From Chitinophaga pinensis (GTDB lineage Bacteria > Bacteroidota > Bacteroidia > UBA7662 > JAIXUI01), in NCBI GenBank assembly GCA_943373175.1, contig CALSBM010000001.1:51298-115297 (forward strand): a stretch of DNA of 64,000 nucleotides. The letters are read 5' to 3'. Numbering within the stretch: position 1 is the stretch's first letter; every line of letters starts with the position of its first letter. A program made the position numbers and the translations under genes. A model generated the notes under the pieces. It worked only from the letters and a program-made list of their open reading frames with translations, had not been told where the DNA came from and ran no database searches. Shown in pieces: positions 1 to 13,198 of the stretch.

Positions 1-110
1 ATCTGTAATAACTATTAACTTATTATCACTGAAGCGATCTGGAAATTGCGTAACCAACTCAATAGCATTGAGATACTGAGTAGGATTAGCAAGAATGAAA
101 AGGGTAGTCA

Positions 111-150
111 TTAAAAAAAATTCGGCCTGCTTATCGGAAATAAGCAGGCC
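111..150 (-). terminator. Rho-independent terminator closing the polysaccharide operon
   Basis: Minus-strand hairpin GGCCTGCTTAT/ATAAGCAGGCC followed by a T8 run, immediately downstream of the stop of the 163..1218 gene. Confidence 0.6.
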
Positions 151-162
151 ATTTATAATTGA

Positions 163-1218
163 TTACAAACCTAGCTTGCTCTGTACCAGTTTTACCTGAT
201 CAAGCACTCTTGCAGCGTATCCCCACTCATTGTCATACCAAAGAACTAACTTCAACATGTGTCCTTGAATAACATTTGTCCATCGATGGTCAACAACAGC
301 AGCAAAATCGGCTTTCTTAAAATCAAGTGAGACCAATGGTTCCCAGTTATTATGAATAATTGGCCAAAATTGGGTTTGCTCCATTTCTTCGAACATTGCT
401 AAAACATCCTTAGTCTCGGCAAAATCTCTTAGGTGAAGCGTTAAATCAGCACTCCCTACAATTGCTGTAGGAGTTCTGTATGAAAAAGAACCGATAATAT
501 CTTCCGTAATTCCATGCTTTTTTAGCACTGAACAAGTGGCTGTTATTGCAGTTGTTGGCTTGGGAATCATGTTGCCAATTGCGGAGCGTCCAAGCGCAAA
601 GTGGTGATAAATTTCACCTGGAACAGACCATGAACTGGCAGGACCGTCCATAAGATTCTGATAATTGAGCCAAGGGTGAAGCGTAGTGGCATATCCATGA
701 GTGATTCCAAAACGCTCAGCGACAGCTTTCATCACAGGAGCAATTGCTGTTGCATCACAAATAGAAGTGGAAATTACGAATTGTGTATCCAAATCTAATT
801 CGGTTTCATTTGCACCAAGAACCATGGTGAAATCTACATTGTTTGGACAATGAGTAATGAACACTCGCTTTACGCCTTTGCGCTCAATTAACTTATGTGC
901 ATCTACAACATTGCTGTAAACACCAGAGGCGTCAATTACAAAGTCACAACCATGAGAAGACCAATCTACGTCATTGATACTCTTTTCATGTGTAACAGCA
1001 ATCGTACGGCCATCTTCACCTACAAGATTGCTTCCTTCCAACTTGAATAGTACTGGAAGTCTGTCGTACAATGTATCGTAGTTCAAGGTATAGGCAATAT
1101 TCTTGATGTTTGGATTTACATCATTGATTGCTACAACTTCGAACATTTTCTTGTCAAGGTTGTTTCTGAAAATGGCTCGACCAATTCTGCCGAATCCATT
1201 AATTCCAATTTTCAACAT
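163..1218 (-). CDS. divergent GAPDH-family NAD(P)-dependent dehydrogenase (glyceraldehyde-3-P/erythrose-4-P dehydrogenase-like)
   Basis: N-terminal INGFGRIGR Rossmann motif, a catalytic Cys in a degenerate S-loop (SICDATAIAP in place of SCTTNCLAP), a C-terminal WYDNEWGY motif; 351 aa; sits inside a glycan operon. Confidence 0.7.
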   Translation of the reverse strand: MLKIGINGFGRIGRAIFRNNLDKKMFEVVAINDVNPNIKNIAYTLNYDTLYDRLPVLFKLEGSNLVGEDGRTIAVTHEKSINDVDWSSHGCDFVIDASGVYSNVVDAHKLIERKGVKRVFITHCPNNVDFTMVLGANETELDLDTQFVISTSICDATAIAPVMKAVAERFGITHGYATTLHPWLNYQNLMDGPASSWSVPGEIYHHFALGRSAIGNMIPKPTTAITATCSVLKKHGITEDIIGSFSYRTPTAIVGSADLTLHLRDFAETKDVLAMFEEMEQTQFWPIIHNNWEPLVSLDFKKADFAAVVDHRWTNVIQGHMLKLVLWYDNEWGYAARVLDQVKLVQSKLGL

Positions 1219-1220
1219 AT

Positions 1221-1865
1221 TTACTTTTTAAGTGTTTCAAGGCCAAAAAAGGTGGAGAGATTGTAACTGATACTTACATTCGAGTTACTTCCAAAGAAAC
1301 TCTCCCAATTTTCCATTTGAGTATGTCCAAATAAAAAAATAAACTTGGCACCGATGTGGTTGGCACTTTCGAAATCCATTTTACTGTCACCGAAAAACCA
1401 AACATCATCTTTTAGCTCAAGTTCATTAAGATGGTCTTTTTTACTCTTCGGACCACCACATATTGCATCAAAATAGGAATCGATTCCTTTGACTTCAAAT
1501 AATTTTTTTACTTCTCGCTCTTCACCACCTGAGAGTGCAATTAGTTTACACTTCTTAGATAGCATTTCAATTACTGTCTGGGCTTTCGCTGTAAATTCAA
1601 CTGAATACAAACTTTCTTCATTAAGCCGCTCATATGTTTTTAGCACTGTGCTATACTCAACTGTTTCTTCTCCAAATTGAGCTGCAATTTTAGTTTGCCT
1701 TGTAACGCCGTTTTGTGAAGTAAAATGACGTACAAAATCTTTTAGCTTTTCTCCATTCAAAAAAAGTGAAGCTGCTTTTTGAATGTTGCTTTCTTTTAGT
1801 TGATTAGAATCAAAAATGACACCGTCAACATCTAAAATTACTGTAGCAGGAAGTATATTAAACAT
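1221..1865 (-). CDS. HAD-superfamily phosphatase (KdsC / phosphoglycolate-phosphatase-like)
   Basis: DVDGVIFD motif I near the N-terminus, 214 aa, gene order and 2-nt spacing consistent with the same operon. Confidence 0.65.
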   Translation of the reverse strand: MFNILPATVILDVDGVIFDSNQLKESNIQKAASLFLNGEKLKDFVRHFTSQNGVTRQTKIAAQFGEETVEYSTVLKTYERLNEESLYSVEFTAKAQTVIEMLSKKCKLIALSGGEEREVKKLFEVKGIDSYFDAICGGPKSKKDHLNELELKDDVWFFGDSKMDFESANHIGAKFIFLFGHTQMENWESFFGSNSNVSISYNLSTFFGLETLKK

Positions 1866-1935
1866 AGTATTAAGGAATTATTGTAAGTGACTTATCCTTG
1901 CAAGTAATTTTGCTAATTTCTAAACACAACTTTTT

Positions 1936-2688
1936 TTAGTTTCTAGTATCTCTGTTTTCTATTAGAAGATCTTGTACAAATTCAGAATATCGGGGTTGAT
2001 AGTTGTTTTGCTGTTCTTTAAATTTAATAGCTAATTCAGCGCGGATAAAATCATCCTCTTCATCAATATCAATGGTTGCAAACCCATCTAATGGAAAAGT
2101 AAGAATCTCTCCGCTTAACACGGCATAACCATTGGCTTCATACGATTCCATAAATTTTTTAGTGTCATATAACGCAATAGAAAAATTTAAAGCATGAACT
2201 GGCTGCAAATCCTGTGACCTTGGTAATTGTCCATCACAGGAAAAGTTCAAAGATTTTCCATTGAAAAAACAATGGGTTTGAATTTTTTCACAAGTAATCA
2301 ATGTATTTGCTTCTGACTTCAAATAGGCAAGAACAGCATCATCAATTATTTGACCTGTTATAAATGGAGCTGTTGGGGTAATAACAGCCAGAAAATCTGA
2401 AGGTACTGCCTTCATAAAATCATAGATATAATCATCTATCATAGAAGTACTTGTAGCTAATTCTGCCCGTCTATGATAAAAGTTCACCTCAAGTTTTTTT
2501 GCAATTTCTTCCCATTGAATAGCGTCCGAATTGATGTAAATTCCTTCAGAAATATAATTACTGGATTTTATCGCATTCAATGTATGTTCCAGCAAAGTAA
2601 CCTCGCCTAAAAGGCGCATTCCTTTCATCGGGACACGATTGCTTCCAAGCCTAGAAGGTACTACTGTTAGAAATGTTCCTTGTTTCAT
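1936..2688 (-). CDS. NeuA/KdsB-family CMP-ulosonic acid cytidylyltransferase (second copy, divergent)
   Basis: VVPSRLGSNRVPMKG...LLG matches the IPARxGSKxxPxKN P-loop of acylneuraminate/Kdo cytidylyltransferases, 250 aa. Confidence 0.6.
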   Translation of the reverse strand: MKQGTFLTVVPSRLGSNRVPMKGMRLLGEVTLLEHTLNAIKSSNYISEGIYINSDAIQWEEIAKKLEVNFYHRRAELATSTSMIDDYIYDFMKAVPSDFLAVITPTAPFITGQIIDDAVLAYLKSEANTLITCEKIQTHCFFNGKSLNFSCDGQLPRSQDLQPVHALNFSIALYDTKKFMESYEANGYAVLSGEILTFPLDGFATIDIDEEDDFIRAELAIKFKEQQNNYQPRYSEFVQDLLIENRDTRN

Positions 2689-2788
2689 CTTTTAAGTATT
2701 ATTACTGTTATGCCTCAATTTAAAGACAAACAGTTTCTTTTTGCTTCTTTTCGTATATGCAATTAACTTGTCAAGTAATCCGAATAAT

Positions 2789-4063
2789 CTATCTGCCTGG
2801 CATAAATGCCGGAGCTCTATTTGCCAAAGATTTTATTCTGTTTTGACTTACTTGCTTATCAACAATGCAGTAATGACTAACTATAATTGCAAGTATAAAC
2901 ATATTGATTTGTGAGAACCAGTTTGGATTTGAAATCCCATAAATCAACTCTGAGACAAAAAGAGTCATAAAAAACGTTGAAGAGTATGAAGAGAACAACT
3001 TGTTATTAACTCCCCAATTTTTAATTATTCTTTTGAACATTTGGATATAAATAGAAAGATATGCTATCAAACCTAAAATTCCAGTTTGAGCAGCAATATC
3101 AAGCAAATCAGAGTGGCTAATACTTCCTAACTTATACTTAATTTGATTGAGACCTACTCCTATAATTGGATTATCAAGAAATAGACTAAAGGTCTTTTGG
3201 TAAAGACTAAGCCTCGCCTCCCCCTCTACAGCGTCGTCTAATGAATCGTTTCTTGTTAAACGCCGATAAAGAAAAGTATCGCCGAAAAGGGCATCTCCAA
3301 AGGTTAAAAATATCATGTAAAGTATATAAACAACGATCAAAGCTGCAACAAGTCGGCCTCCACTAAGTCGTTTAAAAAAGAAAAACATCGCTAGCGAAAG
3401 GAAAATATTTGCAAAGGCTCCGCGGGAAGCAGTAAGAATAATAACATTAATACAGAAGCCTAAAAGTCCCACATACATTAATTTCTTAACAACTCCCTCC
3501 GCTGTAAAGGCATAAAACAACGCCAACAATACGCCAATCCTTGAGAAAGTTGCCAAGCCATTTGCATTTCCTGTAATTCCTGTTAATCGGTAGTATTCAT
3601 CAGAAGCGTCTTGAGTAGGATCTTTAATAACAACACTTAATACTGCAACTGTAATGGAAGCTAAAAAAACTGATTTGAAAAGAAGCTTAATCTCATTGGG
3701 TTTTTCAACTGAAGAAAAAACCATAATCATAAGAAGCCAGTTAGAAAGAATCACTTTAATGTACCTGAAATAACCATCCGTGTCTTCAACATTAACAAGT
3801 CCAAGAAGTGAGATTGGAAGCAGCGCTCCAAACAATTTTATTTCAACAGGCAGTTTTGTGATTTTGGTTACATTATTAGAAAGCACATAAAATAGAACCA
3901 TTGGGCCTAAAACCCAGAGAATGATTTGATTTAAACCTGAAGAGGCAAAGTTACCATACAGAGAACCGACAAGAAAGATAAACACATAAGCTGCCATTAC
4001 TTTGGCACTCATGCTTACTGTTTCCACTACATCTGGAAGGCGTTGTACGCCAGATAAAATCAT
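2789..4063 (-). CDS. O-antigen polymerase/ligase family membrane protein (Wzy_C-like)
   Basis: 424 aa, about 10-12 hydrophobic segments with a large loop, typical position in a polysaccharide locus. Confidence 0.55.
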   Translation of the reverse strand: MILSGVQRLPDVVETVSMSAKVMAAYVFIFLVGSLYGNFASSGLNQIILWVLGPMVLFYVLSNNVTKITKLPVEIKLFGALLPISLLGLVNVEDTDGYFRYIKVILSNWLLMIMVFSSVEKPNEIKLLFKSVFLASITVAVLSVVIKDPTQDASDEYYRLTGITGNANGLATFSRIGVLLALFYAFTAEGVVKKLMYVGLLGFCINVIILTASRGAFANIFLSLAMFFFFKRLSGGRLVAALIVVYILYMIFLTFGDALFGDTFLYRRLTRNDSLDDAVEGEARLSLYQKTFSLFLDNPIIGVGLNQIKYKLGSISHSDLLDIAAQTGILGLIAYLSIYIQMFKRIIKNWGVNNKLFSSYSSTFFMTLFVSELIYGISNPNWFSQINMFILAIIVSHYCIVDKQVSQNRIKSLANRAPAFMPGR

Positions 4064-4102
4064 GGTTAAAATTGAGTTAGGTTCAGAAAAACTCGATTAC
4101 TA

Positions 4103-5065
4103 TTAAAGTAATTCTGATTGTTTCATTATCCAGCTAAAGGTGTTAGCCATTCCCTTCTGAAGAGGCCATTGAGGTTTCCAACCAAGCTTTTCCTGAATTA
4201 ATTTATTATCCGAGTTACGCCCCCGAACCCCTGTAGGGCCAGGAATATTTCGAATCGTTAGTTTTTTTCCTGATAAAGAAATAGTTATTTCAGCAAGCTG
4301 ATTAATAGACACCATTTCATCAGAACCTATGTTTACAGGTCCTTCAAAATCAGACTCCATTAACCTGCGCACACCTTCAAGGCATTCGTCGATATAAAGG
4401 AATGAGCGCGTCTGAAGTCCATCGCCCCAGATTTCAATAAAACTATTATCTTTTGCCTCAACTACTTTTCTACAAATTGCAGCAGGTGCTTTTTCTTTTC
4501 CACCTTTCCAAGTTCCACAAGGCCCGAAAATATTATGAAAACGTGCTATCCGGACTTTAAGCCCATAATTACGGGCGTACGATAGATAAAGACGTTCTGA
4601 AAACAATTTTTCCCATCCATACTCACTATCTGGTGCAGCCGGATAAGCCGAATCTTCTGAGCACTCTGGATTGTTAGGATCTAACTGATTATACTCAGGA
4701 TAAATACAGGCAGATGAAGAATAAAAAACACGGTCAACTTGATGCTTATGGCATAGATGTACAATATTCAGATTGATTAATGCAGAATTATGCATTACGT
4801 CGGCATCATGTTCGCCAGTAAATATGTAACCAGCACCTCCCATGTCTGCAGCTAACTGATAAACATGATCAAACTGGCGATCAAACAAGGTTGAACAGAA
4901 TGACGAATCGCGTAAGTCTCCTAAAATAAAATCATCGGAGTTGCTATTTCCATATTCATTTATTTTTAAGTCAACGCCTCTGACCCAAAATCCTTCATTT
5001 TTTAACCTATTTACTAAATGGCCTCCGATAAATCCTCCGGCTCCCAGTACGAGTGCATGCTTCAT
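4103..5065 (-). CDS. NAD-dependent epimerase, GDP-mannose 3,5-epimerase-like
   Basis: GAGGFIGGHL Rossmann motif; SSACIYPE and RFHNIFGPCGTWKGGKEKAPAAICRK segments closely resemble GDP-mannose 3',5'-epimerase. Confidence 0.6.
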   Translation of the reverse strand: MKHALVLGAGGFIGGHLVNRLKNEGFWVRGVDLKINEYGNSNSDDFILGDLRDSSFCSTLFDRQFDHVYQLAADMGGAGYIFTGEHDADVMHNSALINLNIVHLCHKHQVDRVFYSSSACIYPEYNQLDPNNPECSEDSAYPAAPDSEYGWEKLFSERLYLSYARNYGLKVRIARFHNIFGPCGTWKGGKEKAPAAICRKVVEAKDNSFIEIWGDGLQTRSFLYIDECLEGVRRLMESDFEGPVNIGSDEMVSINQLAEITISLSGKKLTIRNIPGPTGVRGRNSDNKLIQEKLGWKPQWPLQKGMANTFSWIMKQSELL

Positions 5066-5204
5066 GCTTGTTTCAGATTGATTTTTGAAATAAAACTAAG
5101 ATTACACAAAAATAGTTTATGATTTACTCGGGATATACTTGAAGAAACCAATACCTCGTTTAAAGAACCAACATGAATGACCTCAAAAGGTGTTTTCTTT
5201 TCGG

Positions 5205-6644
5205 TTAACCTAGTGAAGCAAAATGCGCAATTGCCTCGGATACACGTTGGGTACTTTTGCCATCTATTTTATAGCACTCTTGCTCAGCAGAAAATAGTCG
5301 TTTTTCCTTAAGTCTATCCGGTTCACGAAGGTTAATTCGCAAGAACTCATCTAACTCATCAAAGGAACGTGCAATTTCGACACCTCCAAGATTAATGAAC
5401 TTTTTCATGTGAGTAAATTCTCCCATTCTTACTACAGATTTCCACTCAGGATATCCTGAATGTACATCAAACATTGGCATAACCGTAGGTCGATCTGCAA
5501 TTACTGATTCAATCGCAACTGTTGAACATGAGTTCATCGCAATAGTAGAATGAACCAAGAGTGCCGACATCTTCTCCATATCATCATGTTTCATGTGCCA
5601 AGTCATCTCACTATCCTCCATATCCGGAAAATCTACTGCCACACGCTCTCCTACGATTCCTTTTAAACGGCCAATCCAAGTTATATCTGCTGTTCGGCCT
5701 TGGATATTTTGCATGTGTGGCCGTGCAATAAATTGCATCTGTTCCCCATAATGCTTCTCCTGAACACGTTTAGCAAGCCACTCAATAATATCTATCTCAT
5801 CCGGACAGAAGTATGGCGCACTCATGCAAAAGAATATATATGGAAAATCAGGATTAAGACCAAGTTTTTCAAGCCAGACTCTCTCTTTGCCAACTTCCCT
5901 ACTTTGAAAATGAAGGTCAAAATGGGCAACTCCTGTTTCTCTTATATTAGCTCTTGAAACTTTATAAAACGCTTCTATCTCATGCGTCATTATTGGCCCC
6001 CATGAAAGGTAATAATCACCTTCTTCACGGAAATAACCCTTACAAGTGATGTTGTCCCAACTAAGTATATTGAGCAATCTCTTTAATCTAAGCTTTCTAG
6101 CAGTACCAAGAACTACACCTTCCCATCGGTCAACCGGGCGTGTAGAAACTATAAGATCCGGTTTCAACGATTTTAGTTTATTCAATACATCTTCATCATA
6201 ATTTCCAGATCTTTCTACACTTAAATAAAGTTTCTTCAAGAATGGCAGTGCATTAGATAAATAAGAAAGTAAAAGAAAAAATCTAGCAATCCATCTTCTT
6301 AAGTAGGGTGTTTGAGATTTATCAACTCTTCTGAGATGCTTCTCCCAGAGTGCAGGATTCGATTTAATATCTTCGAGCATATAAATTCGAAACCATTCAC
6401 TAAAAAAGGTTGATCGTCCATGCATCGGTTTAAAGAAATGAACTTCGGCACCAGCATTCGTTACTTTATGCTTGAGCTGATCATTTCCTGTATCAATAGC
6501 AAACACATGTAACTCAAGGTTGCATTTAACAAGTTTTTCGATTAATCCAGTTTGAATTAACCCTCTGGCCGTATGGCCATGTGAAACGAGATAAACTACT
6601 TTTTTCATCTTTAATGGATATCGATTATGCCTGAGAGGTTGCAT
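5205..6644 (-). CDS. hypothetical glycan-biosynthesis protein, possibly a GT-B-fold transferase (candidate ulosonic/sialic acid transferase or capsule synthesis protein)
   Basis: 479 aa, no signal peptide, embedded between the deacetylase and epimerase genes; the real start is probably the internal MKKVVYLVSHG at about 6608; I did not recognise a family. Confidence 0.3.
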   Translation of the reverse strand: MQPLRHNRYPLKMKKVVYLVSHGHTARGLIQTGLIEKLVKCNLELHVFAIDTGNDQLKHKVTNAGAEVHFFKPMHGRSTFFSEWFRIYMLEDIKSNPALWEKHLRRVDKSQTPYLRRWIARFFLLLSYLSNALPFLKKLYLSVERSGNYDEDVLNKLKSLKPDLIVSTRPVDRWEGVVLGTARKLRLKRLLNILSWDNITCKGYFREEGDYYLSWGPIMTHEIEAFYKVSRANIRETGVAHFDLHFQSREVGKERVWLEKLGLNPDFPYIFFCMSAPYFCPDEIDIIEWLAKRVQEKHYGEQMQFIARPHMQNIQGRTADITWIGRLKGIVGERVAVDFPDMEDSEMTWHMKHDDMEKMSALLVHSTIAMNSCSTVAIESVIADRPTVMPMFDVHSGYPEWKSVVRMGEFTHMKKFINLGGVEIARSFDELDEFLRINLREPDRLKEKRLFSAEQECYKIDGKSTQRVSEAIAHFASLG

Positions 6645-7617
6645 GCAAATGCCACGACCGGTGGCTCATTGCAGTCATAAAGCTTTCCTCTTTGGCTTTG
6701 AAATGTTTACCTCCCGGAGCATCATTGTTGTCAATTCTTGCTAAAGCAAACGGTTGATTAAGATGTGTATTAATTGCTCTTTCCATGGTAAAAGCAAACT
6801 TATACCCTGCACGCTCAAGAATAGAAGCCATTCCTTGAGCAGAGCTTTTTGAACCATAAGGAAAAGAGAAACCAGAAACAGGCATTCCGATTAGTTGTGT
6901 AAGAATGGATTGAGATCGCTCGACCTCTTCGTGTTTTCGATTCTCATCCATATTACCTGTTGGCACATGAGTATGGCCATGAGAACCCAAATACCCTCTT
7001 CTACCCAAATCAATCACCTGCTGATGGTTCATATACAATGATTGATGAATAGCCGCTTCGTCCCCAAAATACTCTTCAAATAATTGATTAATAACAACTT
7101 CAAGCTGGTCTCCAGTTAGAAGAAAATTCATTTTATATTTTAGAATAGCAGCTTCTAACGTGTCGTACTTATAGTGATCTGAAGCCTTCGATGCAATTTC
7201 TTTTTCATCATAGGAGTTAAACAATTCCTTGTATTGAAGGTGCAAAGCTATAGAAACAGTTTCTGGTGAAAGCTGGCTTCTTACTAAATGGATTTTATGA
7301 ACATTTTGAACGACAGAACCTTCAACGCTTGCGGTGTTAACAAAGAACAATGCCGGAATACCCATAGCGTCAAGCACCGGAAGAGCCAACTCATACTGTT
7401 CTTTTAACCCATCATCAAAGGTTATAATCAACGCATTATTGGGAAGTGATTGATTGCCATCAATTGCGCCCACAATGTCACTGCATGAAACAAATGTTCC
7501 TTCTTTTGACATTTTTTCCAGCGCATTCCTAAACCCTTCTGGAGTACATCCGAAAATGCTTGGAAATGGCGCATCAAAACTATTGCGGATATAGTGGAAG
7601 TTTACGGCGAGCAACAT
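6625..7617 (-). CDS. polysaccharide deacetylase (NodB/CE4 family)
   Basis: TFDDG motif and a His-rich C-terminal half, 330 aa. Confidence 0.7.
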   Translation of the reverse strand: MLLAVNFHYIRNSFDAPFPSIFGCTPEGFRNALEKMSKEGTFVSCSDIVGAIDGNQSLPNNALIITFDDGLKEQYELALPVLDAMGIPALFFVNTASVEGSVVQNVHKIHLVRSQLSPETVSIALHLQYKELFNSYDEKEIASKASDHYKYDTLEAAILKYKMNFLLTGDQLEVVINQLFEEYFGDEAAIHQSLYMNHQQVIDLGRRGYLGSHGHTHVPTGNMDENRKHEEVERSQSILTQLIGMPVSGFSFPYGSKSSAQGMASILERAGYKFAFTMERAINTHLNQPFALARIDNNDAPGGKHFKAKEESFMTAMSHRSWHLHATSQA

Positions 7618-8421
7618 TTAAAACGCGGTTACTATTGGGTATTGAGCCTGCCTAACAGACTGCTGATTAATATACTCAGCCATCATTCCAGACTCAAACT
7701 GCTCATACATTTTTTGAATATCTAGGGCGTTCAGGTCTTTTCTTTTGCATTCTTCACCCTGAGTTAAATCTTGTGCTTTAGGTTGAAGTATCCTAGAATG
7801 GTATCGTTTTACCACCTCTGGAAACGCTTCGACGGCCTTTATAATGGTTTTATGTCCTAAATCATGGGGGCCATCTAGATGTCCGGCATCAGGACGAACT
7901 TGGTGCAAGATTGCGCCTGCATCTACTTGCAGGGTGGCCAAATGTAAGGTTGCGCCAACACATTCCGGTTTTCCATGCACCAAAGGCCAGAAATTGGTTC
8001 CTGAACCACGGTAATAAGGCGAAAGTCCTAAATGCAAATTCAGAAAACGGTTCTCATACTGGCTAAGCAATGGTGCTTTAATTAAGCTTGAACCGAATAG
8101 GAGGATATAGTCGAAATTATGGTTGGCAATCCAGTTTATTATATCTTCTGAATTGCTTTTGCCTGTTTCTACCCAAACAGCATCCAGGTTGTCAACATTA
8201 CTTGCCTCTTCGAAGAAATACTTCTCACTGACTTGTCGAGCCTTAAAGTGTTCTTCCATGACTTGCTTTTCCTCTACAGGCCAGTCAAATCTTTCGTGGA
8301 CATTGGCCTTTTTCTCAAAAACAACTCCGGCAACAGGCAAATGGTGGCTGATATAATTCGCCATAAAGCGATGCCTCAGCTCATTTCCAGTAATTATCAG
8401 TACTCTAGGTTTTTCCATCAT
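7618..8421 (-). CDS. sugar N-formyltransferase (formyl_trans_N domain)
   Basis: NLHLGLSPYYRG matches the N-x-H-x-S-L-L-P-x-x-R-G formyltransferase catalytic motif; 267 aa; ATGA start/stop overlap with the downstream gene. Confidence 0.65.
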   Translation of the reverse strand: MMEKPRVLIITGNELRHRFMANYISHHLPVAGVVFEKKANVHERFDWPVEEKQVMEEHFKARQVSEKYFFEEASNVDNLDAVWVETGKSNSEDIINWIANHNFDYILLFGSSLIKAPLLSQYENRFLNLHLGLSPYYRGSGTNFWPLVHGKPECVGATLHLATLQVDAGAILHQVRPDAGHLDGPHDLGHKTIIKAVEAFPEVVKRYHSRILQPKAQDLTQGEECKRKDLNALDIQKMYEQFESGMMAEYINQQSVRQAQYPIVTAF

Positions 8422-9332
8422 CCAAAATATTGGCGTAACAGCTTTTCGGCCATAAAAACTTCACAGGCATGCATAGCATCCAAAGATGCACCACCGATAT
8501 GAGGGGTTATCAACACTGGAAGACCCTCTGCCCTTGCGAGAAAAAGCGGACTCTTCTTGTAATCTTCAAGTTCTGTAGCCAAAACGTCGGTACCAACTGC
8601 TTTTAACTTTCCAGAACGTAGTGCATCAGATAAAGCAAATTCGTCAACCAACCCACCTCTAGAAGTGTTCAGAAACCAAGCTGCGGGTTTGAATTTGGCG
8701 ATTAATTCCCTACTAATCATACCTTTAGTAGTCGCATCATAAGGAACATGCAAGCATATTACGTCACTGGTTTCTACCAGTTCCTCCAAAGAATCGTACT
8801 GCTTGTAATCAGGGTTTACAACTTGTGGGTCAACATACCGAACTTGCATACCGAAGGCCTGCCCGTAACGAGCCATCATGCTACCAATTCTACCTAAACC
8901 TATGATACCTAAAGATTTACCTCTGAGTTGATGTCCTCTAAATAAATCTCTGTTCCAAACCCCATGATCTACTGAAGCCATAGCAGATGGAATATGCCGC
9001 ATCATAGCAAGCAACAATCCCCAGCTCAATTCAGCAGTAGAAGGTATGGTCTCTAAGAAAGCAGTCTCTCCTTTCAACGAAAGAAAACCAATGTTTCTTT
9101 GTTTCATCGTTTCTAAATCAAGATGATCAAGACCAGTAGTGGCGGTAACCACCCATTTAAGACGTGGAAACTGACTTAAAACAGACGTATCAATTTTCTT
9201 GGCAAGCCTAACTATTAGTACCTCTGCATCTGGATGAGCATCAGGGAAATAAAGAAACTTAGTTTGTAAAAGTGCAACGGCATCCAAACTATAACGGTCT
9301 GGCTCCAGGTTGCTTACCAGTATTTGGCTCAT
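8418..9332 (-). CDS. D-isomer-specific 2-hydroxyacid dehydrogenase (PdxB/SerA/GhrA-like)
   Basis: GIIGLGRIGS NAD-binding motif, catalytic R/E/H region near the C-terminus (ITPHIGG), 304 aa. Confidence 0.75.
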   Translation of the reverse strand: MSQILVSNLEPDRYSLDAVALLQTKFLYFPDAHPDAEVLIVRLAKKIDTSVLSQFPRLKWVVTATTGLDHLDLETMKQRNIGFLSLKGETAFLETIPSTAELSWGLLLAMMRHIPSAMASVDHGVWNRDLFRGHQLRGKSLGIIGLGRIGSMMARYGQAFGMQVRYVDPQVVNPDYKQYDSLEELVETSDVICLHVPYDATTKGMISRELIAKFKPAAWFLNTSRGGLVDEFALSDALRSGKLKAVGTDVLATELEDYKKSPLFLARAEGLPVLITPHIGGASLDAMHACEVFMAEKLLRQYFG

Positions 9333-10030
9333 TAGTGTTTTTCAGAAAGCCAGTCCTTCATCACTACCTCGGCGATTAACAAATCGCGTGGCTCATCAAT
9401 ATTAAGCAATTGGGAAGCAGGCATTAGATAACCCAAACTAGGGGAAGCCATCACAGTTCCTACTTGTTTAAATGCTTCACAACGAACAACATAAATAGAT
9501 CCGTTGCGATAAAAGGCAGGAGGAATATCCTGTCTTCTTGTACTTTCAAATTCCGGCATAATGGGCTGAAGGTCAGGAGCATCTCCTTTCATCCAGTACA
9601 TTCTTGCGGGGTGAACATCATTCATTGCACATACGGAAATAACCGAGTTAGCATGGGCATTCCGCTTAAGTAAATCCATGCTTTCAGCTATTTGAGCAGA
9701 GGTACGAATAGGAGAAGTGGGTTGAAGCAAAACAACCGCTTCAACATCTGTATCAGAGAGGGCAAGCACTGCTTCAATTGTTTCTCCAATGGGGCTATTA
9801 TCGCGGGCAATAGCAGGATCACGTTCATGAATTTTCACATCCGGATATAGGCGGGCAACATCGAGTATTTGCAAATCATCGCTACTAACCCAAACCTCAT
9901 GAATTGCCTCACATTGCAAAGCTGCCTCGATGCTATAGGCAATCAATGGTTTCCCTAATACAGGGGCAACATTCTTTCCGGGCACTCCTTTAGAACCTCC
10001 ACGGGCAGGAATCAACGCGATGGCTTTCAT
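9332..10030 (-). CDS. neuA: N-acylneuraminate cytidylyltransferase (CMP-sialic acid synthetase)
   Basis: Canonical IPARGGSKGVPGKN P-loop, LLQPTSPIR motif, 232 aa, directly downstream of the neuC-neuB pair. Confidence 0.85.
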   Translation of the reverse strand: MKAIALIPARGGSKGVPGKNVAPVLGKPLIAYSIEAALQCEAIHEVWVSSDDLQILDVARLYPDVKIHERDPAIARDNSPIGETIEAVLALSDTDVEAVVLLQPTSPIRTSAQIAESMDLLKRNAHANSVISVCAMNDVHPARMYWMKGDAPDLQPIMPEFESTRRQDIPPAFYRNGSIYVVRCEAFKQVGTVMASPSLGYLMPASQLLNIDEPRDLLIAEVVMKDWLSEKH

Positions 10031-11187
10031 TAATAGGAAATCGTCTTATGAAATGAAAGAGGGACAGTTGCTAGCAAGTCGGCTATTTTCTTTCCAGCAT
10101 CTCCTCCTCCGTAAACATGATCTTGTGCTGGTTTTGGCCGGTCTCTACACGCCTGAATGGCGTCAAGAATCGCCTGACGCTGATATTCAACATCGATTAC
10201 ATTCGAGCCTCTGTCACGCATATTCTGCCGAGAGCCGATGTTAACAACCGGAACTCCAAGGAAGGCACTTTCTCTGATTCCTACACTTGAGTTACCTACC
10301 AATGCTTTGCTGTTGTAGATTAATCTCAAGAAGTCGTTGGGCTCCATGTTCTTAAAGAAGTGTACATGGTTGAGTTTGTTTTTTTCACGGAAAGAGCGAA
10401 TTCCTGAAGAAGTTCCATCTGCTCCGGCATCAACATTGGGCCAGAACCAAAAAACGGGAATATCAAGTTCACTTACTGCATGGAGCGTTTCCTCGATATG
10501 CACCCTCGACTCTTTGTATTCTGTAGTAACCGGATGTTGCATTACCACCACATATCCGTTGCTAAAATCAGGTCTAGCCCCAACGCCACCATATTTTTGA
10601 TAGGGGTCGAAATCTAGCGCCGGACTTTGAAGCACTTCTGCTGCCAAATCAATGGAAGGGCAACCCGTATTCCACACTTTATCTTCATGTTCTCCTAAGC
10701 GAATAACTCTTTCGCGTGCACTCTCCGATGCAGTGAAGTGATAGTCAGCAAGTTTAGTTATCGCATGTCTTACTTTCTCATCAATATTTCCGGTTACTTC
10801 TCCACCCTGAACATGTGCCAAAGGAATGTTCATATAAGAGGCTGAAATTGCGGTTGCCATGGTTTCAAATCTGTCGGCTACCGTAACAACAATGTCGGGG
10901 CGAAGGTTATCGAATACTGTTGAAAGTTCCAGGATACCAATACCTGTTGTCTTCGCGGCAGCGGTCAAGTTCTCTCCTTCGAGCACATTAAACACCTTTG
11001 CTGTTATTTCAAATCCATCTTTCTGAATGTAATTAACCGCAGAACCATACCGATCCAGCAATGCTGAAGCTGCAATGATAAGTTGAAGTTCGAGTTCAGG
11101 ATGTTGTTGTATGGCCTTCAATGCAGTTTTGATTCTGCTATAGCTAGGCCTAGCCGTTACAACAACGGCGATTTTTCTTCTGGTCAT
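10030..11187 (-). CDS. neuC: UDP-N-acetylglucosamine 2-epimerase (hydrolysing)
   Basis: 385 aa with UDP-GlcNAc 2-epimerase family architecture, IAHVQGGE motif, adjacent to neuB. Confidence 0.75.
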   Translation of the reverse strand: MTRRKIAVVVTARPSYSRIKTALKAIQQHPELELQLIIAASALLDRYGSAVNYIQKDGFEITAKVFNVLEGENLTAAAKTTGIGILELSTVFDNLRPDIVVTVADRFETMATAISASYMNIPLAHVQGGEVTGNIDEKVRHAITKLADYHFTASESARERVIRLGEHEDKVWNTGCPSIDLAAEVLQSPALDFDPYQKYGGVGARPDFSNGYVVVMQHPVTTEYKESRVHIEETLHAVSELDIPVFWFWPNVDAGADGTSSGIRSFREKNKLNHVHFFKNMEPNDFLRLIYNSKALVGNSSVGIRESAFLGVPVVNIGSRQNMRDRGSNVIDVEYQRQAILDAIQACRDRPKPAQDHVYGGGDAGKKIADLLATVPLSFHKTISY

Positions 11188-12191
11188 TCAACCAAGTCTT
11201 CAAAGTTGAGGAAAGACTGTGCTTGCATATCATGCTTGAGCACACGTCCGATAATACTTTCAAATTGAGCAGCAGGTATTCCCTGATTGGCAGGTTTCTT
11301 CGTTTCTAAATCTTCGAATCGAATAACATGGCCTGCACAAAAACTGCCTCTAACTGCTAATGCTTTCCCAAAAATAATTTTTGCTGTTGCAAAGCGACCC
11401 ACATCGTTCTTATCGACCACGGTATCACGCATAACTTCAATTTGACGAACCGAATGTACTAATTGCTTCACCTCGTCAATTACGAGGGAAGAAGCAGCAT
11501 CTGGGCCAAACATTCTACGATCAAACACAACGTGGAATTCTAATATCTCAGCTCCCAAGCTTACGGCACATAATGGGGCAGCAAGAGACGCAGAGTGATC
11601 TGATAAGCCAACTGGCATTTTATACCGAGCTTTCATTTCCAACATAGCCTGAATACCAACACGTTCTGGAGGAGTCGGGTATTCTGTATTGCACTGAAGT
11701 ACACTTAGAGGAACATTCTTCGACTGAAGAAATGCAATGGATTGGTCGAGTTCGTCATAAGAACTCATTCCAGAAGAAAGTATCACAGGTTTGCCTGTTC
11801 TGGCAATGTGTTCCAGCATTAGCAAATTTGAAACTTCCCCCGAACCAATTTTATAGCGCTTTACCCCTATACGCTCCAACAATTCCACCGCTTCCACAGA
11901 GAAAGGAGATGACATAAATTCCATTCCCTTTTCTTCACAATGTGTTTTAATTCCAACCCATTGTTCTTCCGTAAAGCCCATTCTCTTCCAATAGTCAAAG
12001 CGCGTATTATCCACTTTGGAAAAATTGACTCGGAATGGTTCAAATTCGGAGCTTTCTGCTTCTGCAATATGGGTTTGAAATTTAACAACATCAACTCCTG
12101 TTTCTGCAAGAGCATCGATGTAGGAATGAAGAATGCCAAGGCTTCCATCGTGAGCCTGAGCAATCTCTGCTATAATGAGGGTTTTAGTCAC
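11184..12191 (-). CDS. neuB: N-acetylneuraminate (nonulosonic acid) synthase
   Basis: IAEIAQAHDGSLG...VDVVKFQ NeuB TIM-barrel N-terminus and a C-terminal SAF domain, 335 aa. Confidence 0.85.
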   Translation of the reverse strand: MTKTLIIAEIAQAHDGSLGILHSYIDALAETGVDVVKFQTHIAEAESSEFEPFRVNFSKVDNTRFDYWKRMGFTEEQWVGIKTHCEEKGMEFMSSPFSVEAVELLERIGVKRYKIGSGEVSNLLMLEHIARTGKPVILSSGMSSYDELDQSIAFLQSKNVPLSVLQCNTEYPTPPERVGIQAMLEMKARYKMPVGLSDHSASLAAPLCAVSLGAEILEFHVVFDRRMFGPDAASSLVIDEVKQLVHSVRQIEVMRDTVVDKNDVGRFATAKIIFGKALAVRGSFCAGHVIRFEDLETKKPANQGIPAAQFESIIGRVLKHDMQAQSFLNFEDLVE

Positions 12192-13186
12192 TTGTTTTCA
12201 CCCTCTTGGTCTGAAAACCACCGGAAAGTGCTTTCCAACCCTGTTTTTAAATCAAAAAGGGGATTATATCCCAACAAAGTTCGAGCTTTTGTGATATCTG
12301 CAAGGCTATCGCGAACGTCTCCAGCGCGAGAAGATCCATAAGATGGCTTTAAGGTTGTTGATGAAAGCTCAGCCAGAATATTCCACATGCCGTTTAAGGT
12401 AGTACGTTCTCCAAATGCGATGTTGTAAACCTGATTCAATGCTTCTTGAGAGTCTGTTTCCATCGCACAGATGTTGGCCTGTACTGCGTTTTCTACAAAG
12501 GTAAAATCCCTGCTTTGTTCTCCGTCTCCATTAATCAGTGGTGCTTCACCTTGAAGTATTAATCCAATAAATTTTGGAATAACCGCAGCGTAAGCTCCGT
12601 TTGGGTTTTGCCAAGGACCAAAGACATTGAAGTATCTTAATCCTATTGTATTCACTCCATACACTTTGTAAAAAACATCCGCATAGAGCTCATTAACATA
12701 CTTCGTAACCGCATAAGGAGAAAGGGGCTTTCCAATCTTATCTTCCGTTTTCGGCAACTGCTGACTATCACCATACGTTGAAGAGGAAGCCGCATACACC
12801 ATTTTACCTATGCCTGCTTCGTTTACTGCAACCAACATATTAAGGAATCCGGCAATATTGACTGCATTGGTAGTAATTGGATCATTAATGGATCGAGGAA
12901 CGGAACCCAACGCAGCTTGATGAAGAACATCAGTCATTCCTTTAACTGCATTGTTGCAATCGTCAAGATTACGGATGTCGCCTTCAAGAAATTCAAAGTC
13001 CGGCCTTCCTATGAATTCCTGGATGTTATCTAAGTTTCCAGTAGCTAGGTTATCGAGAACTCGAACCTTTCCGGTACCATGACTAAGTAAGTATCTCACC
13101 AAATTAGAGCCAATAAAACCAGCCCCTCCGGTTACGAGAACACGTCTGTCGGCGAGGTTGCTACGATGATAAATGGGGTTAGTCAA
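12188..13186 (-). CDS. UDP-GlcNAc/UDP-glucose 4-epimerase family (WbpP/TviC-like)
   Basis: VTGGAGFIGSNL Rossmann motif, YxxxK region, 332 aa, paired with a WbpO-like dehydrogenase. Confidence 0.75.
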   Translation of the reverse strand: MTNPIYHRSNLADRRVLVTGGAGFIGSNLVRYLLSHGTGKVRVLDNLATGNLDNIQEFIGRPDFEFLEGDIRNLDDCNNAVKGMTDVLHQAALGSVPRSINDPITTNAVNIAGFLNMLVAVNEAGIGKMVYAASSSTYGDSQQLPKTEDKIGKPLSPYAVTKYVNELYADVFYKVYGVNTIGLRYFNVFGPWQNPNGAYAAVIPKFIGLILQGEAPLINGDGEQSRDFTFVENAVQANICAMETDSQEALNQVYNIAFGERTTLNGMWNILAELSSTTLKPSYGSSRAGDVRDSLADITKARTLLGYNPLFDLKTGLESTFRWFSDQEGENK

Positions 13187-13198
13187 AATGCTTAATAA

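Follow-up and report, generated by a model that had tools for sequence, protein, structure and literature searches.

Gene content of the locus

The left end of the window (the whole 64,000-nucleotide stretch of DNA that was analysed) carries three genes in the order CT2, HAD and GAP*, and every gene here lies on the minus strand. The preliminary description had called them as a cytidylyltransferase, a phosphatase and a divergent GAPDH, and all three reading frames are real. They belong to a cassette that leaves the window at its left edge.

1..111, minus strand: start of c16, a putative glycosyltransferase (353 aa when whole), truncated by the window edge
123..151, minus strand: terminator-like hairpin, 13-bp stem and T run, a consensus match only
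163-1218, minus strand: GAP*, divergent GAPDH-superfamily dehydrogenase, 351 aa (Pfam Gp_dh_N and Gp_dh_C)
1221-1865, minus strand: HAD phosphatase, 214 aa (Pfam HAD_2)
1936-2688, minus strand: CT2, cytidylyltransferase of the KdsB/NeuA/PseF family, 250 aa (Pfam CTP_transf_3)
2789..4063, minus strand: Wzy_C-family polymerase/ligase, locus context (Pfam Wzy_C)
5205..6644, minus strand: GT-B glycosyltransferase, TagF/BFO_1060-like, 479 aa
6609..9346, minus strand: three-gene insertion outside the cassette, missing from the relative locus L006
6625-7617, minus strand: polysaccharide deacetylase, member of the insertion
7618-8421, minus strand: formyltransferase-like gene, member of the insertion
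8418-9332, minus strand: 2-hydroxyacid dehydrogenase (2-Hacid_dh; Pfam and curated-model matches), member of the insertion
9332-10030, minus strand: NeuA-like CT1 (125.9 bits to the PseF model)
9332..12191, minus strand: NeuB-like, NeuC and NeuA-like CT1 genes

The HAD stop sits 2 nt upstream of the GAP* start. The hairpin follows the GAP* stop and precedes the start of c16, and its match to the consensus makes it a candidate terminator. The Wzy_C protein shares 73% identity with its counterpart in L006. Further into the locus, the NeuB-like/NeuC/CT1 block is a separate nonulosonic-acid pathway, with NeuC scoring 380 bits (cutoff 235.9) and the NeuB-like protein 298 bits (cutoff 399.65) against curated models. 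CT2 is a second CTP-transferase copy, distinct from the NeuA-like CT1. One candidate for the transfer of a CMP-linked acid sugar is the GT-B enzyme.

GAP*, the HAD phosphatase and CT2

GAP* has the Rossmann motif GINGFGRIGR, the catalytic Cys (in SICDATA) and the WYDNEWGY tail, as first described. The stretch SICDATAIAP, which had been taken for a degenerate S-loop, is instead the catalytic-Cys motif (canonically SCTTNCLAP). The true S-loop is also altered: alignment to 1GD1 and to homologues places a 10-residue insertion there (ASSWSVPGEIYHH), which is conserved and contains HH. In the structure model the S-loop has a pLDDT below 50. D33, C154 and H181 of GAP* align with Asp32, Cys149 and His176 of 1GD1 and are invariant in 81 homologues. 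The NAD site is retained, as are D32, C149, H176, R231 and N313. The Pi-site residues Ser148, Thr150 and Arg195 are replaced by Ile (81/81 homologues), Asp (81/81) and Leu (79/81), while T208 is kept. At the Ps-site positions, R231 is retained and T179 is Leu; D181 is Tyr. The resulting family signature across the 81 homologues, I148 C149 D150 H176 L179 Y181 L195 R197 T208 R231 (L195 in 79), recurs in about 90 of the 127 representatives of 50%-identity clusters, reaching down to 33% identity. Homologues from different phyla share 62-96% identity.

Scores against curated models are all low. TIGR01534 gives 221.6 (cutoff 367.2), the Epd models PRK13535 and TIGR01532 give 182.1 (cutoff 539) and 174.2 (cutoff 530.55), and the other GAPDH models are also far under their cutoffs. 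Identity to GapA, Epd and Bst GAPDH is 30-35%, with E. coli Epd at 30.6%. In a neighbor-joining tree with three outgroups only, GAP* forms a separate clade, grouping with neither GapA nor Epd, and Epd falls outside it. By these comparisons GAP* is a deep, distinct clade within the GAPDH superfamily, and the earlier suspicion that it is not the housekeeping enzyme was well founded. One could still imagine an ordinary extra glycolytic GAPDH, or an inhibitor-resistant paralogue, lying beside glycan genes by chance, and the full-length Gp_dh_N/Gp_dh_C architecture and the intact Cys, His and NAD site would suit it. We give this idea a negligible probability in view of the separate clade, the scores under every equivalog cutoff, the (nearly) invariant replacement of Pi-binding residues, one of them by Asp, and a synteny with CT, HAD and 2-hydroxyacid dehydrogenase (2HDH) genes that is conserved across phyla.

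The HAD protein has its motifs intact (DVDGV with D12-V-D14, LSGG, K and GDSKMD), matches Pfam HAD_2 at 49.9 bits and is 43% identical to the HAD in the same position of the relative locus L001. Judged by sequence, it is of the C1-capped HAD_2 type. Its weak matches are to phosphoglycolate phosphatase, PpaX and MtlD only, and the models of KdsC and Neu5Ac-9-P phosphatase gave no match, so the KdsC-like label given to it earlier has to be dropped.

The assignment of CT2 as a second NeuA/KdsB-family cytidylyltransferase stands. It matches CTP_transf_3 (PF02348) at 56.3 bits and falls far under the PseF, KdsB and NeuA equivalog cutoffs (50.6 bits to the PseF model, cutoff 205.7; 35 bits or less to KdsB models). 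It shares 48-54% identity with the cytidylyltransferases next to GAP* in L001, L003 and L005. Its R13, K22, R157, D207 and D209 align with R12, K21, R165, D209 and D211 of NmCNS and are invariant in the CT2 family, so that the catalytic and carboxylate residues are retained; the counterpart of NmCNS R165 is the carboxylate salt bridge position, the Arg/Lys pair serves nucleotide binding and the DxD binds Mg. Gln104 of NmCNS is Thr in CT2, and the N-acetyl pocket is not retained. We take the conserved residues to favour a CMP-linked alpha-carboxy product.

Cassette membership and distribution

The preliminary description had paired GAP* with the 2-hydroxyacid dehydrogenase at 8418-9332, which it called PdxB-like. 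That gene does encode a 2-Hacid_dh protein. The label is not sustained: the best match is PGDH (197 bits, cutoff 454), and PdxB PRK00257 scores 122.2 against a cutoff of 434. The pairing is also with the wrong gene. The 8418-9332 protein is only 25-31% identical to the GAP*-syntenic 2HDHs, which are 50-58% identical among themselves, and it shares 43-45% identity with a 2HDH found next to CT1 in L007 and L010, where the two lineages co-exist. It lies in a 2.7-kb insertion (6609-9346) missing from the closest relative, L006, with flanks that align at 73-76% DNA identity. As a different lineage inside such an insertion it was rejected as the cassette partner. The cassette's own 2HDH is found about 1 kb past the left window edge, on a 100%-identical overlapping contig from the same organism (L088), in the order GAP*, c16 and then a 315-aa 2-Hacid_dh. 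It is closest to CtBP, D-LDH and PGDH, not PdxB. The c16 N-terminus (MTTLFILANPTQYLNAIEL) matches L006 11108-12169, and the L008 orthologue of c16 is weakly polysialyltransferase-like (PF07388 at 20.3 bits, under cutoff).

GAP* cassettes were found at 83 loci in more than 20 phyla, in the order HAD, GAP*, CTP_transf_3, FAH or HpcH (or neither) and 2-hydroxyacid dehydrogenase, with overlaps of a few bases common between the genes. Of the 83, 55 have a cytidylyltransferase, 49 a HADa or HADb gene, 48 the cassette 2HDH and 38 an FAH or HpcH gene. Where at least 6 kb is available on both sides (53 loci), the figures are 46 for CTP_transf_3, 44 for 2-Hacid_dh and 35 for HAD. The loci are glycan or flagellin-glycosylation loci, and the carriers include Prochlorococcus, Cyanobium, SAR86, SAR11, Cryomorphaceae, Arcobacter, CPR bacteria and DPANN archaea. 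Since the four enzyme families recur in these syntenic loci, the idea of a four-enzyme set is supported. Searches of Pfam, NCBIfam, the PDB and the searchable literature found no described route for the cassette, in agreement with the original impression. Thus the preliminary description was right in part, as to its genes, motifs and families, its non-housekeeping GAPDH and the co-occurrence, and wrong in its S-loop, KdsC and PdxB labels and its choice of partner.

The cassettes vary in a patterned way. About three quarters of relatives have FAH/HpcH, and 11 of 44 type A loci lack both, including the clade of the window (with L006, L007 and L010). The identity of the cytidylyltransferase tracks the FAH, HpcH or neither variant, being KdsB-like in L063-type loci, while GAP* and 2HDH stay conserved throughout. 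We count this in favour of a constant upstream chemistry with a variable product. Three unrelated phosphatase types (HADa, HADb and His_Phos_1) accompany GAP*, two natural GAP*-HADb fusions occur (P0371 and P0501), and type A cassettes have no kinase gene. Together these count in favour of a phosphorylated intermediate. In a second kind of cassette (type B, the sister cassettes), GAP* adjoins glycerate kinases of two unrelated families, namely Gly_kinase TIGR00045 (290 bits, cutoff 168) and MOFRL/DUF4147, along with a CpgD/IPCT-like NTP transferase (NTP_transf_3) and a CDP-OH_P_transf. The active-site signature of GAP* is the same in both types. The glycerate-kinase context and the fusions point to a chemistry running from triose phosphate to phospho-acid to glycerate. 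The transferases adjoining the cassettes are Maf/MptE-like, BFO_1060-like or polyST-like, BFO_1060 representing the Pse/Leg transferase family (PMC5378307), and they too speak for a CMP-linked alpha-carboxy product.

NeuB lies within 10 kb at 17 of the 53 cassette loci and is enriched at those without FAH/HpcH (7/11 versus 7/33, Fisher p = 0.02). This enrichment, and the presence of NeuB and NeuC genes and two cytidylyltransferases in the window, would suit an acyl transfer, in which the 3-phosphoglyceroyl thioester of GAP* is attacked by the amino group of a nonulosonic-acid precursor. HAD would then remove the phosphate to give an N-glyceroyl nonulosonic acid, as in Pse5Am7Gra, and CT2 would be specific for the modified sugar. 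The genes behind the N-glyceroyl groups of nonulosonic acids are still unassigned (PMC5378307), and the phosphate site of GAP* is remodelled rather than merely lost, with a new conserved His-His and Asp. However, most cassette loci have no NeuB nearby, and both the 2HDH and the frequent FAH/HpcH go unexplained. We also know of no precedent for aminolysis by GAPDH-family enzymes, and regard this reading as highly improbable.

A proposed route and its alternatives

We favour, tentatively, the reading that CT2, HAD and GAP* represent, inside the window, a conserved cassette whose most likely product is a CMP-activated acidic unit for glycans of the cell surface. The cassette would continue outside the window with the putative glycosyltransferase c16 and the CtBP/SerA-like 2-hydroxyacid dehydrogenase. 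All substrates and products named in the route are ones we infer, set beside the observed gene content, synteny, active-site substitutions, fusions and glycerate-kinase context. GAP*, by its Cys/His/NAD+ chemistry, would oxidise a short phosphorylated aldehyde; glyceraldehyde-3-P is the likeliest one, and erythrose-4-P the alternative. With Ile148, Asp150 and Leu195 in place of the Pi-site residues, hydrolysis rather than phosphorolysis of the thioester would follow, making this a non-phosphorylating oxidation that yields 3-phosphoglycerate irreversibly. HAD would take off the phosphate to give glycerate, and the cassette 2HDH would oxidise C2 to give the 2-keto acid hydroxypyruvate. In the roughly three quarters of relatives that have it, the FAH/HpcH-type Mg-enolate enzyme would extend or rearrange this into a ring-forming 2-ulosonic acid; HpcH aldolases, as cited in PMC7610986 (its reference 22), take hydroxypyruvate as donor. 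The KdsB/NeuA-like CT2 would join the acid sugar to CMP, and the glycosyltransferase would attach it to the repeat unit.

The chain is incomplete in the window's clade because FAH/HpcH is missing there. Hydroxypyruvate cannot cyclise and so is itself no KdsB-type substrate. Several other points count against the favoured route. 3-Phosphoglycerate is an abundant metabolite, and it would be odd for the most conserved gene of the cassette merely to supply it; the remodelled site may instead accommodate some other nucleophile, or its aldehyde may be a different one. The strong terminator-like hairpin parts GAP* from c16 and 2HDH, and the S-loop is modelled at low confidence. Thr179 is missing from Epd too, and a longer substrate would be consistent with that.

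Another reading is modelled on PLP synthesis. Epd (GapB), a non-phosphorylating erythrose-4-phosphate dehydrogenase, and PdxB, the 4-phosphoerythronate dehydrogenase, resemble the cassette in that a GAPDH-superfamily dehydrogenase has a D-2-hydroxyacid dehydrogenase as its partner, the latter for oxidation at C2 of the acid formed by the former. Here GAP* would act like Epd on an aldose phosphate of at least four carbons, the 2HDH like PdxB on the aldonate phosphate, and HAD would dephosphorylate. The product, a ring-forming 3-hydroxy-2-ulosonic acid of at least five carbons, would be CMP-activated directly without C-C bond formation, and FAH/HpcH would be left to optional tailoring, for instance as a C3 epimerase. 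It would suit this reading that the minimal cassette recurs without FAH/HpcH, that cytidylyltransferase lineages vary with the cassette variant, that the loss of Thr179 is common to Epd and GAP*, and that the new basic residues of the S-loop insertion could hold a more distant phosphate. An independent Arcobacter cassette follows exactly the same logic with other families (SIS, Gfo/Idh/MocA, 2HDH, IMPase, cytidylyltransferase and Maf-like glycosyltransferase). However, GAPDH-type thiohemiacetal chemistry requires the aldehyde in its open-chain form, and cyclic forms predominate among pentose and hexose phosphates. The four-carbon keto acid from E4P cannot close a ring. The two unrelated glycerate-kinase families beside GAP* in the sister cassette suggest a three-carbon acid, and the same active-site signature is found in both cassette types. 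Epd also retains S148, T150 and R195, where GAP* has I, D and L; the context is a glycan locus with phosphatase and CMP-transferase instead of vitamin B6 genes, and the 2HDH is not closest to PdxB. We therefore regard the oxidation of a longer sugar phosphate, the original proposal, as plausible and yet unlikely, since the glycerate-kinase context and the fusions favour triose phosphate to glycerate.

The favoured route can be set beside other known systems. GapN carries out the irreversible NAD(P)+-dependent conversion of G3P to 3-phosphoglycerate without phosphate, which is the reaction proposed for GAP*, in the unrelated fold of the ALDH superfamily. GAP*, with its GapA fold, would arrive at that outcome through the replacement of the Pi site. 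FkbH, a HAD-like domain acting on 1,3-bisphosphoglycerate in glyceryl-ACP loading, is similar in that a HAD-family enzyme diverts a glycolytic three-carbon unit into a building block. The cassette differs in lacking an ACP and an FkbH-like domain, and a GAP* with a non-functional Pi site could not form 1,3-bisphosphoglycerate. KdsC/KdsB (for Kdo), NeuB/NeuA and the Kdn-9-P phosphatase/CMP-Kdn synthetase share with the cassette a glycan locus and a phosphatase followed by a CTP_transf_3 enzyme, whose substrate in those pathways is an alpha-keto-acid sugar. Unlike them, the cassette has no PEP-dependent synthase of the KdsA/NeuB type, and its phosphatase is of the capped HAD_2 kind. Two dehydrogenases, alone or together with an FAH/HpcH enzyme, seem to assemble the carbon skeleton.

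CpgD of Caulobacter makes CDP-glycerate (PMC12275187), in which a three-carbon acid is activated by a cytidine nucleotide for use in an anionic surface molecule. By analogy with its role in ceramide diphosphoglycerate synthesis, glycerate or 2-/3-phosphoglycerate, made through GAP* and HAD, might be cytidylylated here, and the TagF-like enzyme would add a (phospho)glycerate decoration. CDP-glycerate is a real donor, and type B cassettes hold the glycerate kinase, the CpgD/IPCT-like NTP transferase and the CDP-OH_P_transf. The window cassette differs from the CpgD pathway: a COG1213/NTP_transf_3 enzyme was found in type B relatives only, there is no kinase, and the transferase is KdsB/NeuA-like, a type whose nucleophile is a hydroxyl and not a phosphate, and is here partnered with a phosphatase. 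A GAPDH-like gene is not reported for the Caulobacter pathway. The near-constant 2HDH would be left without a role, and on chemical reasoning a CMP-O-glycerate diester is implausible as a transfer donor. We consider this use of glycerate improbable.

More broadly, it is possible, though doubtful, that the GAP* clade marks a widespread undescribed route by which triose or tetrose phosphate becomes a CMP-activated 3-hydroxy-2-ulosonic or ulosaric acid, a class of compound that would be new. Its enzymes would be a GAPDH-fold dehydrogenase that needs no phosphate, a phosphatase, the 2-hydroxyacid dehydrogenase and an enolate enzyme of the FAH/HpcH kind, and its glycerate-kinase/CpgD-like branch would give CDP-glycerate-type donors. 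Recognition by phages, grazers and the immune system is shaped by nucleotide-activated acid sugars such as Kdo and the sialic, pseudaminic and legionaminic acids, and to our knowledge every known route to such keto acids uses a PEP-dependent synthase. The cassette has in its place a GAPDH-fold enzyme with a rebuilt phosphate site, and its carriers include the most abundant marine picocyanobacteria and heterotrophs. If the route is real, abundant aquatic bacteria would carry on their surfaces acidic monosaccharides or substituents of a family not described before, the identified product would define a new surface-glycan building block, and a new catalytic variant of the GAPDH fold would show that this scaffold can be converted to a hydrolytic dehydrogenase. 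It may also bear on the origin of glyceroyl and phosphoglycerate decorations and on a dedicated enzyme feeding CDP-glycerate synthesis. Functions would follow for about 90 or more 50%-identity clusters that are now annotated only as "GAPDH" or "aldehyde dehydrogenase".

Gene content of the locus

From 163 to 14470 of the window, every gene is on the minus strand, in a single closely packed run.

Genes of the run, in transcription order
13199-14470, minus, TviB-like UDP-sugar dehydrogenase (first transcribed)
12188-13186, minus, TviC-like UDP-sugar epimerase (4-epimerase)
11184-12191, minus, NeuB-like synthase
10030-11187, minus, NeuC, above the NCBIfam cutoff
9332-10030, minus, CT1, a NeuA/PseF-like cytidylyltransferase
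8418-9332, minus, 2-hydroxyacid dehydrogenase of an insertion module
7618-8421, minus, formyltransferase-like protein
6625-7617, minus, polysaccharide deacetylase
5205-6644, minus, TagF/BFO_1060-like protein, 479 aa
4103-5065, minus, SDR epimerase/reductase
2789-4063, minus, Wzy_C protein
1936-2688, minus, CT2, the second cytidylyltransferase
1221-1865, minus, HAD_2 phosphatase (HAD)
163-1218, minus, GAP*, a GAPDH-like protein (last of the run)

The three genes reported at 163-2688 in the preliminary description exist and their coordinates hold; several of their labels needed correction. Since a TviB-like dehydrogenase and a TviC-like 4-epimerase head the locus (12188-14470, minus), the glycan probably also contains a 2-acetamido uronic acid. 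The TviB-like protein scores 585.6 bits as a UDP-GlcNAc 6-dehydrogenase, against a cutoff of 592. The nearest relative of the locus is in a pond Bacteroidetes MAG, which puts the organism in the Bacteroidota. The remainder of the window encodes T9SS-type CHU_C and PKD proteins. It also holds a 1124-aa ORF at 30206-33580 (minus), which matches DUF4175 weakly and nothing else; strand composition bias is extreme around it (AT skew -0.34 and GC skew -0.24 at 30001-32000), and no tandem repeats were detected there. The Rfam and tandem-repeat scans found nothing relevant.

GAP* and the two enzymes encoded beside it

GAP* has the GAPDH Rossmann motif, catalytic Cys and WYDNEWGY tail that were first noticed in it, and the source annotations of its relatives read only "GAPDH", "aldehyde dehydrogenase" or "NAD-binding domain-containing protein". 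With TIGR01534 it reaches 221.6 bits (cutoff 367.2), and with the Epd models 174-182 bits (cutoffs 530-539). A simple NJ tree recovers its family as monophyletic. This agrees with the original suspicion that it is not the housekeeping enzyme, and it is extremely improbable that GAP* is an ordinary GAPDH copy. The window protein is 31.5% identical to E. coli GapA, 30.6% to Epd and 35.5% to the B. stearothermophilus GAPDH; between GapA and Epd the identity is 41%. The residues of GAP* and 81 homologues were compared with 1GD1 (B. stearothermophilus GAPDH), E. coli GapA and Epd in an alignment.

Active-site positions in the GAP* family (position, canonical residue, GAP* family, conservation)
32, Asp, Asp or Glu (kept), conserved
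148, Ser, Ile, 81/81
149, Cys, kept, invariant
150, Thr, Asp, 81/81
176, His, kept, invariant
179, Thr, Leu, 81/81
181, Asp, Tyr, 81/81
195, Arg, Leu, 79/81
197, Arg, kept, invariant
208, Thr, kept, invariant
231, Arg, kept, invariant
313, Asn, kept, invariant

The motif SICDATAIAP, previously read as a degenerate S-loop, is the catalytic-Cys motif. The true S-loop is indeed altered, with a conserved 10-residue insertion; in the alignment, Arg197 is preceded by the inserted segment ASSWSVPGEIYHH. The predicted structure has a pLDDT of 83 overall and below 50 in the S-loop (residues 184-215). The inorganic-phosphate site of GAPDH, known from its enzymology to consist of Ser148, Thr150, Arg195 and Thr208, has acquired Ile, Asp and Leu in the GAP* family. 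As far as sequence can tell, these replacements argue against phosphorolysis of the thioester and for its hydrolysis, with Asp150 and a new His-His pair as candidate water activators. GAP* is thus probably non-phosphorylating. Aminolysis of the thioester, leading to N-glyceroylation, is very unlikely. When 1.84 billion cluster representatives were searched exhaustively with HMMER, 127 of the best 150 matches were full-length, and about 90 of these 127 carry the signature (I/T)-C-D ... H-x-x-L, down to 33% identity. Among the matches listed, those with the canonical signature S-C-T ... T ... R-x-R all score below about 190 bits, and intermediates are very few.

HAD has intact motifs I-IV. It belongs to the capped HAD_2 proteins, and its only relatives, all weak, are phosphoglycolate phosphatases, so the earlier label of KdsC-like does not apply. 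No informative sequence relatives of HAD or of the 479-aa GT were found in the PDB. CT2 is a CTP_transf_3 protein that falls far below the PseF and KdsB cutoffs. It keeps the counterparts of R12, K21, R165 and D209/D211 of the N. meningitidis CMP-NeuAc synthetase, in which R165 holds the carboxylate of the sugar by a salt bridge; it has no counterpart of Q104 or of the N-acetyl pocket. By these residues, CT2 looks like an acid-sugar synthetase. In one clade, the corresponding cytidylyltransferase is KdsB-like (200 bits; cutoff 255).

Distribution of the cassette and its fourth gene

Proteins 62-79% identical to GAP* occur in MAGs of Bacteroidota, Arcobacter, Cyanobium, Clostridium and Chloroherpeton. 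When one genome for each of 185,579 species was scanned with a pattern, 136 GAP* relatives came up, and 80 loci were retrieved. These include Bacteroidota, Cyanobacteria (Cyanobium, Prochlorococcus), Campylobacterota, SAR86, SAR11, Deferribacterota, Bdellovibrionota, Myxococcota, Calditrichota, Bacillota, Planctomycetota, Chlamydiota (Simkania), Elusimicrobiota, Omnitrophota, Marinimicrobia, Nitrospinota, Actinomycetota, CPR Woesebacteria and DPANN archaea. The cassette is present on the complete chromosomes OZ254081.1, OY781945.1 and CAKZJV010000007.1, and cultured bacteria such as Cyanobium sp. ATX 6A2 and strains of Prochlorococcus and Aliarcobacter are among its carriers. When all genes within 7 kb of GAP* in 83 loci were clustered, the recurrent neighbours were CTP_transf_3 proteins (CT, 55), one 2-Hacid_dh lineage (2HDH, 48), two HAD lineages (32 and 17), FAA_hydrolase proteins (FAH, 24), HpcH/HpaI aldolases (HpcH, 14) and a TagF-like protein (12). 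The commonest order, which we call type A, is HAD, GAP*, CT, then FAH, HpcH or nothing, then 2HDH, frequently with overlaps of a few bases between genes. FAH and HpcH genes alternate in the one slot between CT and 2HDH (for example, L001 versus L019 versus L006). Among the 53 loci whose flanks measure 6 kb or more on each side, CT is found in 46/53, 2HDH in 44/53, HAD in 35/53 and FAH or HpcH in 34/53. With the cassette recurring across phyla, the objection that the four enzymes are never syntenic elsewhere fails decisively. We are confident that the cassette is real and acts in glycan synthesis.

The fourth enzyme had been placed at 8418-9332, and this is the wrong gene. Its product shares no more than 25-31% identity with the cassette 2HDHs, which are 50-58% identical among themselves across phyla. 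In L006, the closest relative, with a GAP* 95% identical to that of the window, the gene is absent: relative to L006, the window holds a 2.7-kb insertion (6609-9346, minus) between CT1 and the TagF-like gene, consisting of exactly this dehydrogenase, the formyltransferase-like gene and the deacetylase. The same dehydrogenase lineage (43-45% identity) recurs beside CT1 in L007 and L010. Since the cassette 2HDH is also there, the lineage belongs to a separate module, which may remodel the nonulosonic acid, perhaps its N-acyl groups.

The genuine fourth gene is outside the window, about 0.95-1.9 kb beyond its edge. Only 162 bases separate the GAP* stop from that edge, and the cut ORF at 1-111 matches c16, a putative glycosyltransferase gene that follows GAP* in L006. 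The Logan contig L088 matches window positions 1-5271 without a single mismatch and reaches 6,980 bp beyond them, in the order GAP*, c16 (353 aa) and a 315-aa 2-Hacid_dh protein, which places the fourth gene. This protein shares 83% identity with the cassette 2HDH of L006 and 59-62% with its counterparts in L001, L013 and L073. Between the GAP* stop and c16 there is a strong terminator-like hairpin (151-123, minus; 13-bp stem with 6 G-C pairs, and a T run), so 2HDH may be transcribed separately or by read-through. The 2-Hacid_dh gene is followed by a GT4, a PaaK/F390-synthetase-like adenylating enzyme and an ATPgrasp_ST protein, the last two at 8399-10796 of L088. The PaaK/F390-synthetase-like gene is kept downstream of the cassette in six Bacteroidota loci; with the ATP-grasp protein, it might amidate or esterify the sugar carboxylate.

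Variants of the cassette and the proposed route

No type A cassette has a kinase gene, and therefore a primary metabolite must be the source of any phosphate ester. The phosphatases that accompany GAP* are of three unrelated types: the HAD lineages HADa and HADb, and a His_Phos_1 protein (L046). Natural GAP*-HADb fusions also exist, namely P0371 (623 aa, full signature) and P0501 (593 aa, with a variant T-C-T/L179 signature). This company and these fusions indicate that GAP* and the phosphatase work on consecutive intermediates. Real fusions were found in the cluster representatives only; the seemingly long GAP* ORFs of the Myxococcota loci were rejected as artefacts of ORF calling at high GC.

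KdsB/NeuA-type transferases use a hydroxyl nucleophile, and IPCT-type transferases a phosphate. In type A, a phosphatase goes together with a transferase of the KdsB/NeuA type. A second arrangement, type B (L043, L044, L046, L047, L050, L051, L055, L056, L058, L066, L074 and L081), pairs a kinase with an IPCT-type transferase. The activation logic of the two is opposite, and each pairing is exactly what its transferase class needs. The type B GAP* homologues are 41-47% identical, with the same active-site signature. In seven loci the glycerate kinase beside them belongs to PF02595 (290 bits; subfamily cutoff 168), and in L051 to the unrelated MOFRL/DUF4147 type. The top curated match of the NTP_transf_3 enzyme is the inositol-1-phosphate cytidylyltransferase family, and a CDP-alcohol phosphotransferase (four loci), a DHQS-like enzyme, a VOC/glyoxalase protein and an SDR are also present. 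A PHP protein occurs as well, as does an amidotransferase of the ATP-grasp or AsnB-like kind. The type B cassette often lies inside a NeuB/NeuC locus, and it may be a CDP-glycerate-type pathway. Work from 2025 showed that CpgD, a relative within this cytidylyltransferase family, produces CDP-glycerate from CTP and either 2- or 3-phosphoglycerate, and its authors consider that a dedicated phosphoglycerate source may exist (PMC12275187). The simplest reading of GAP* with a phosphatase is conversion of glyceraldehyde-3-phosphate (G3P) to glycerate. Decoration of the glycan with (phospho)glycerate itself is improbable as the role of the cassette.

Measured against L001, the variants retain 60-83% identity in GAP* and 52-67% in 2HDH. 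CT identity is 60-73% among FAH-type loci across phyla, 44-49% in the Bacteroidota clade without FAH, despite 77-83% in GAP*, and 24-31% in HpcH-type loci. With GAP* and 2HDH conserved and CT tracking the variant, the entry chemistry appears to stay constant and the activated product to vary. Both FAH and HpcH enzymes act on 2-keto acids by Mg-enolate chemistry. The nearest structural relatives of the cassette FAH are HpaG and FAHD1, and those of the cassette 2HDH are CtBP, D-LDH, McyI and PGDH. According to the work listed as reference 22 in PMC7610986, HpcH aldolases accept hydroxypyruvate as donor.

In the route we propose, GAP* would oxidise a short phosphorylated aldehyde without phosphate, most likely G3P, with erythrose-4-phosphate as the alternative. 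HAD would take the phosphate off the acid, the cassette 2HDH would give the 2-keto acid, in most relatives FAH or HpcH would build a ring-forming 2-ulosonic acid, and CT would activate it with CMP. The chances are about even that entry is from G3P to glycerate, and a CMP-linked alpha-keto-acid sugar as end product is a similarly balanced proposition; the full chain is offered tentatively. It would be odd for the most conserved gene to make an abundant metabolite. The window's clade has neither FAH nor HpcH, and hydroxypyruvate cannot cyclise. A literal Epd/PdxB route would start from a longer sugar phosphate; we think it unlikely. Loci without FAH or HpcH are richer in NeuB (7/11 vs 7/33; Fisher p = 0.02), which keeps a nonulosonic-acid-linked role alive. 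The idea that NeuB stands in for FAH/HpcH is suggestive at this p value and was not adopted; the window NeuB is explained by the NeuC/CT1 pathway.

Locus-encoded pathways to cytidine-activated acidic building blocks are already known; the enzyme set of this cassette and its GAPDH-fold variant are new, within an incomplete coverage of the literature. No cassette protein reaches an NCBIfam equivalog cutoff, and no PDB entry describes the GAP* clade or the cassette. A full-text literature search, of incomplete coverage so that a description may have escaped it, returned no GAPDH-like gene in such a cassette, and none is mentioned in two comparative papers that treat flagellin-glycosylation or nonulosonic-acid clusters. 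The E. coli K3 capsule contains 4-deoxy-2-hexulosonic acid; this lead was dropped, the cassette DNA being unmatched in 5,426 E. coli genomes and the protein unmatched in plasmids. A second cassette lies beside the GAP* one in an Arcobacter MAG (L003, 3338-9368), encoding a GmhA-like SIS isomerase, a Gfo/Idh/MocA oxidoreductase, a 2-Hacid_dh, an inositol-monophosphatase-like phosphatase, a CTP_transf_3 protein and a transferase of the Maf/MptE-like kind. It seems to be an independent path by which a sugar phosphate becomes a CMP-activated 2-ulosonic acid, resembling the GAP* cassette in design (aldose phosphate to acid to 2-keto acid, then dephosphorylation and CMP transfer) but using other enzyme families.
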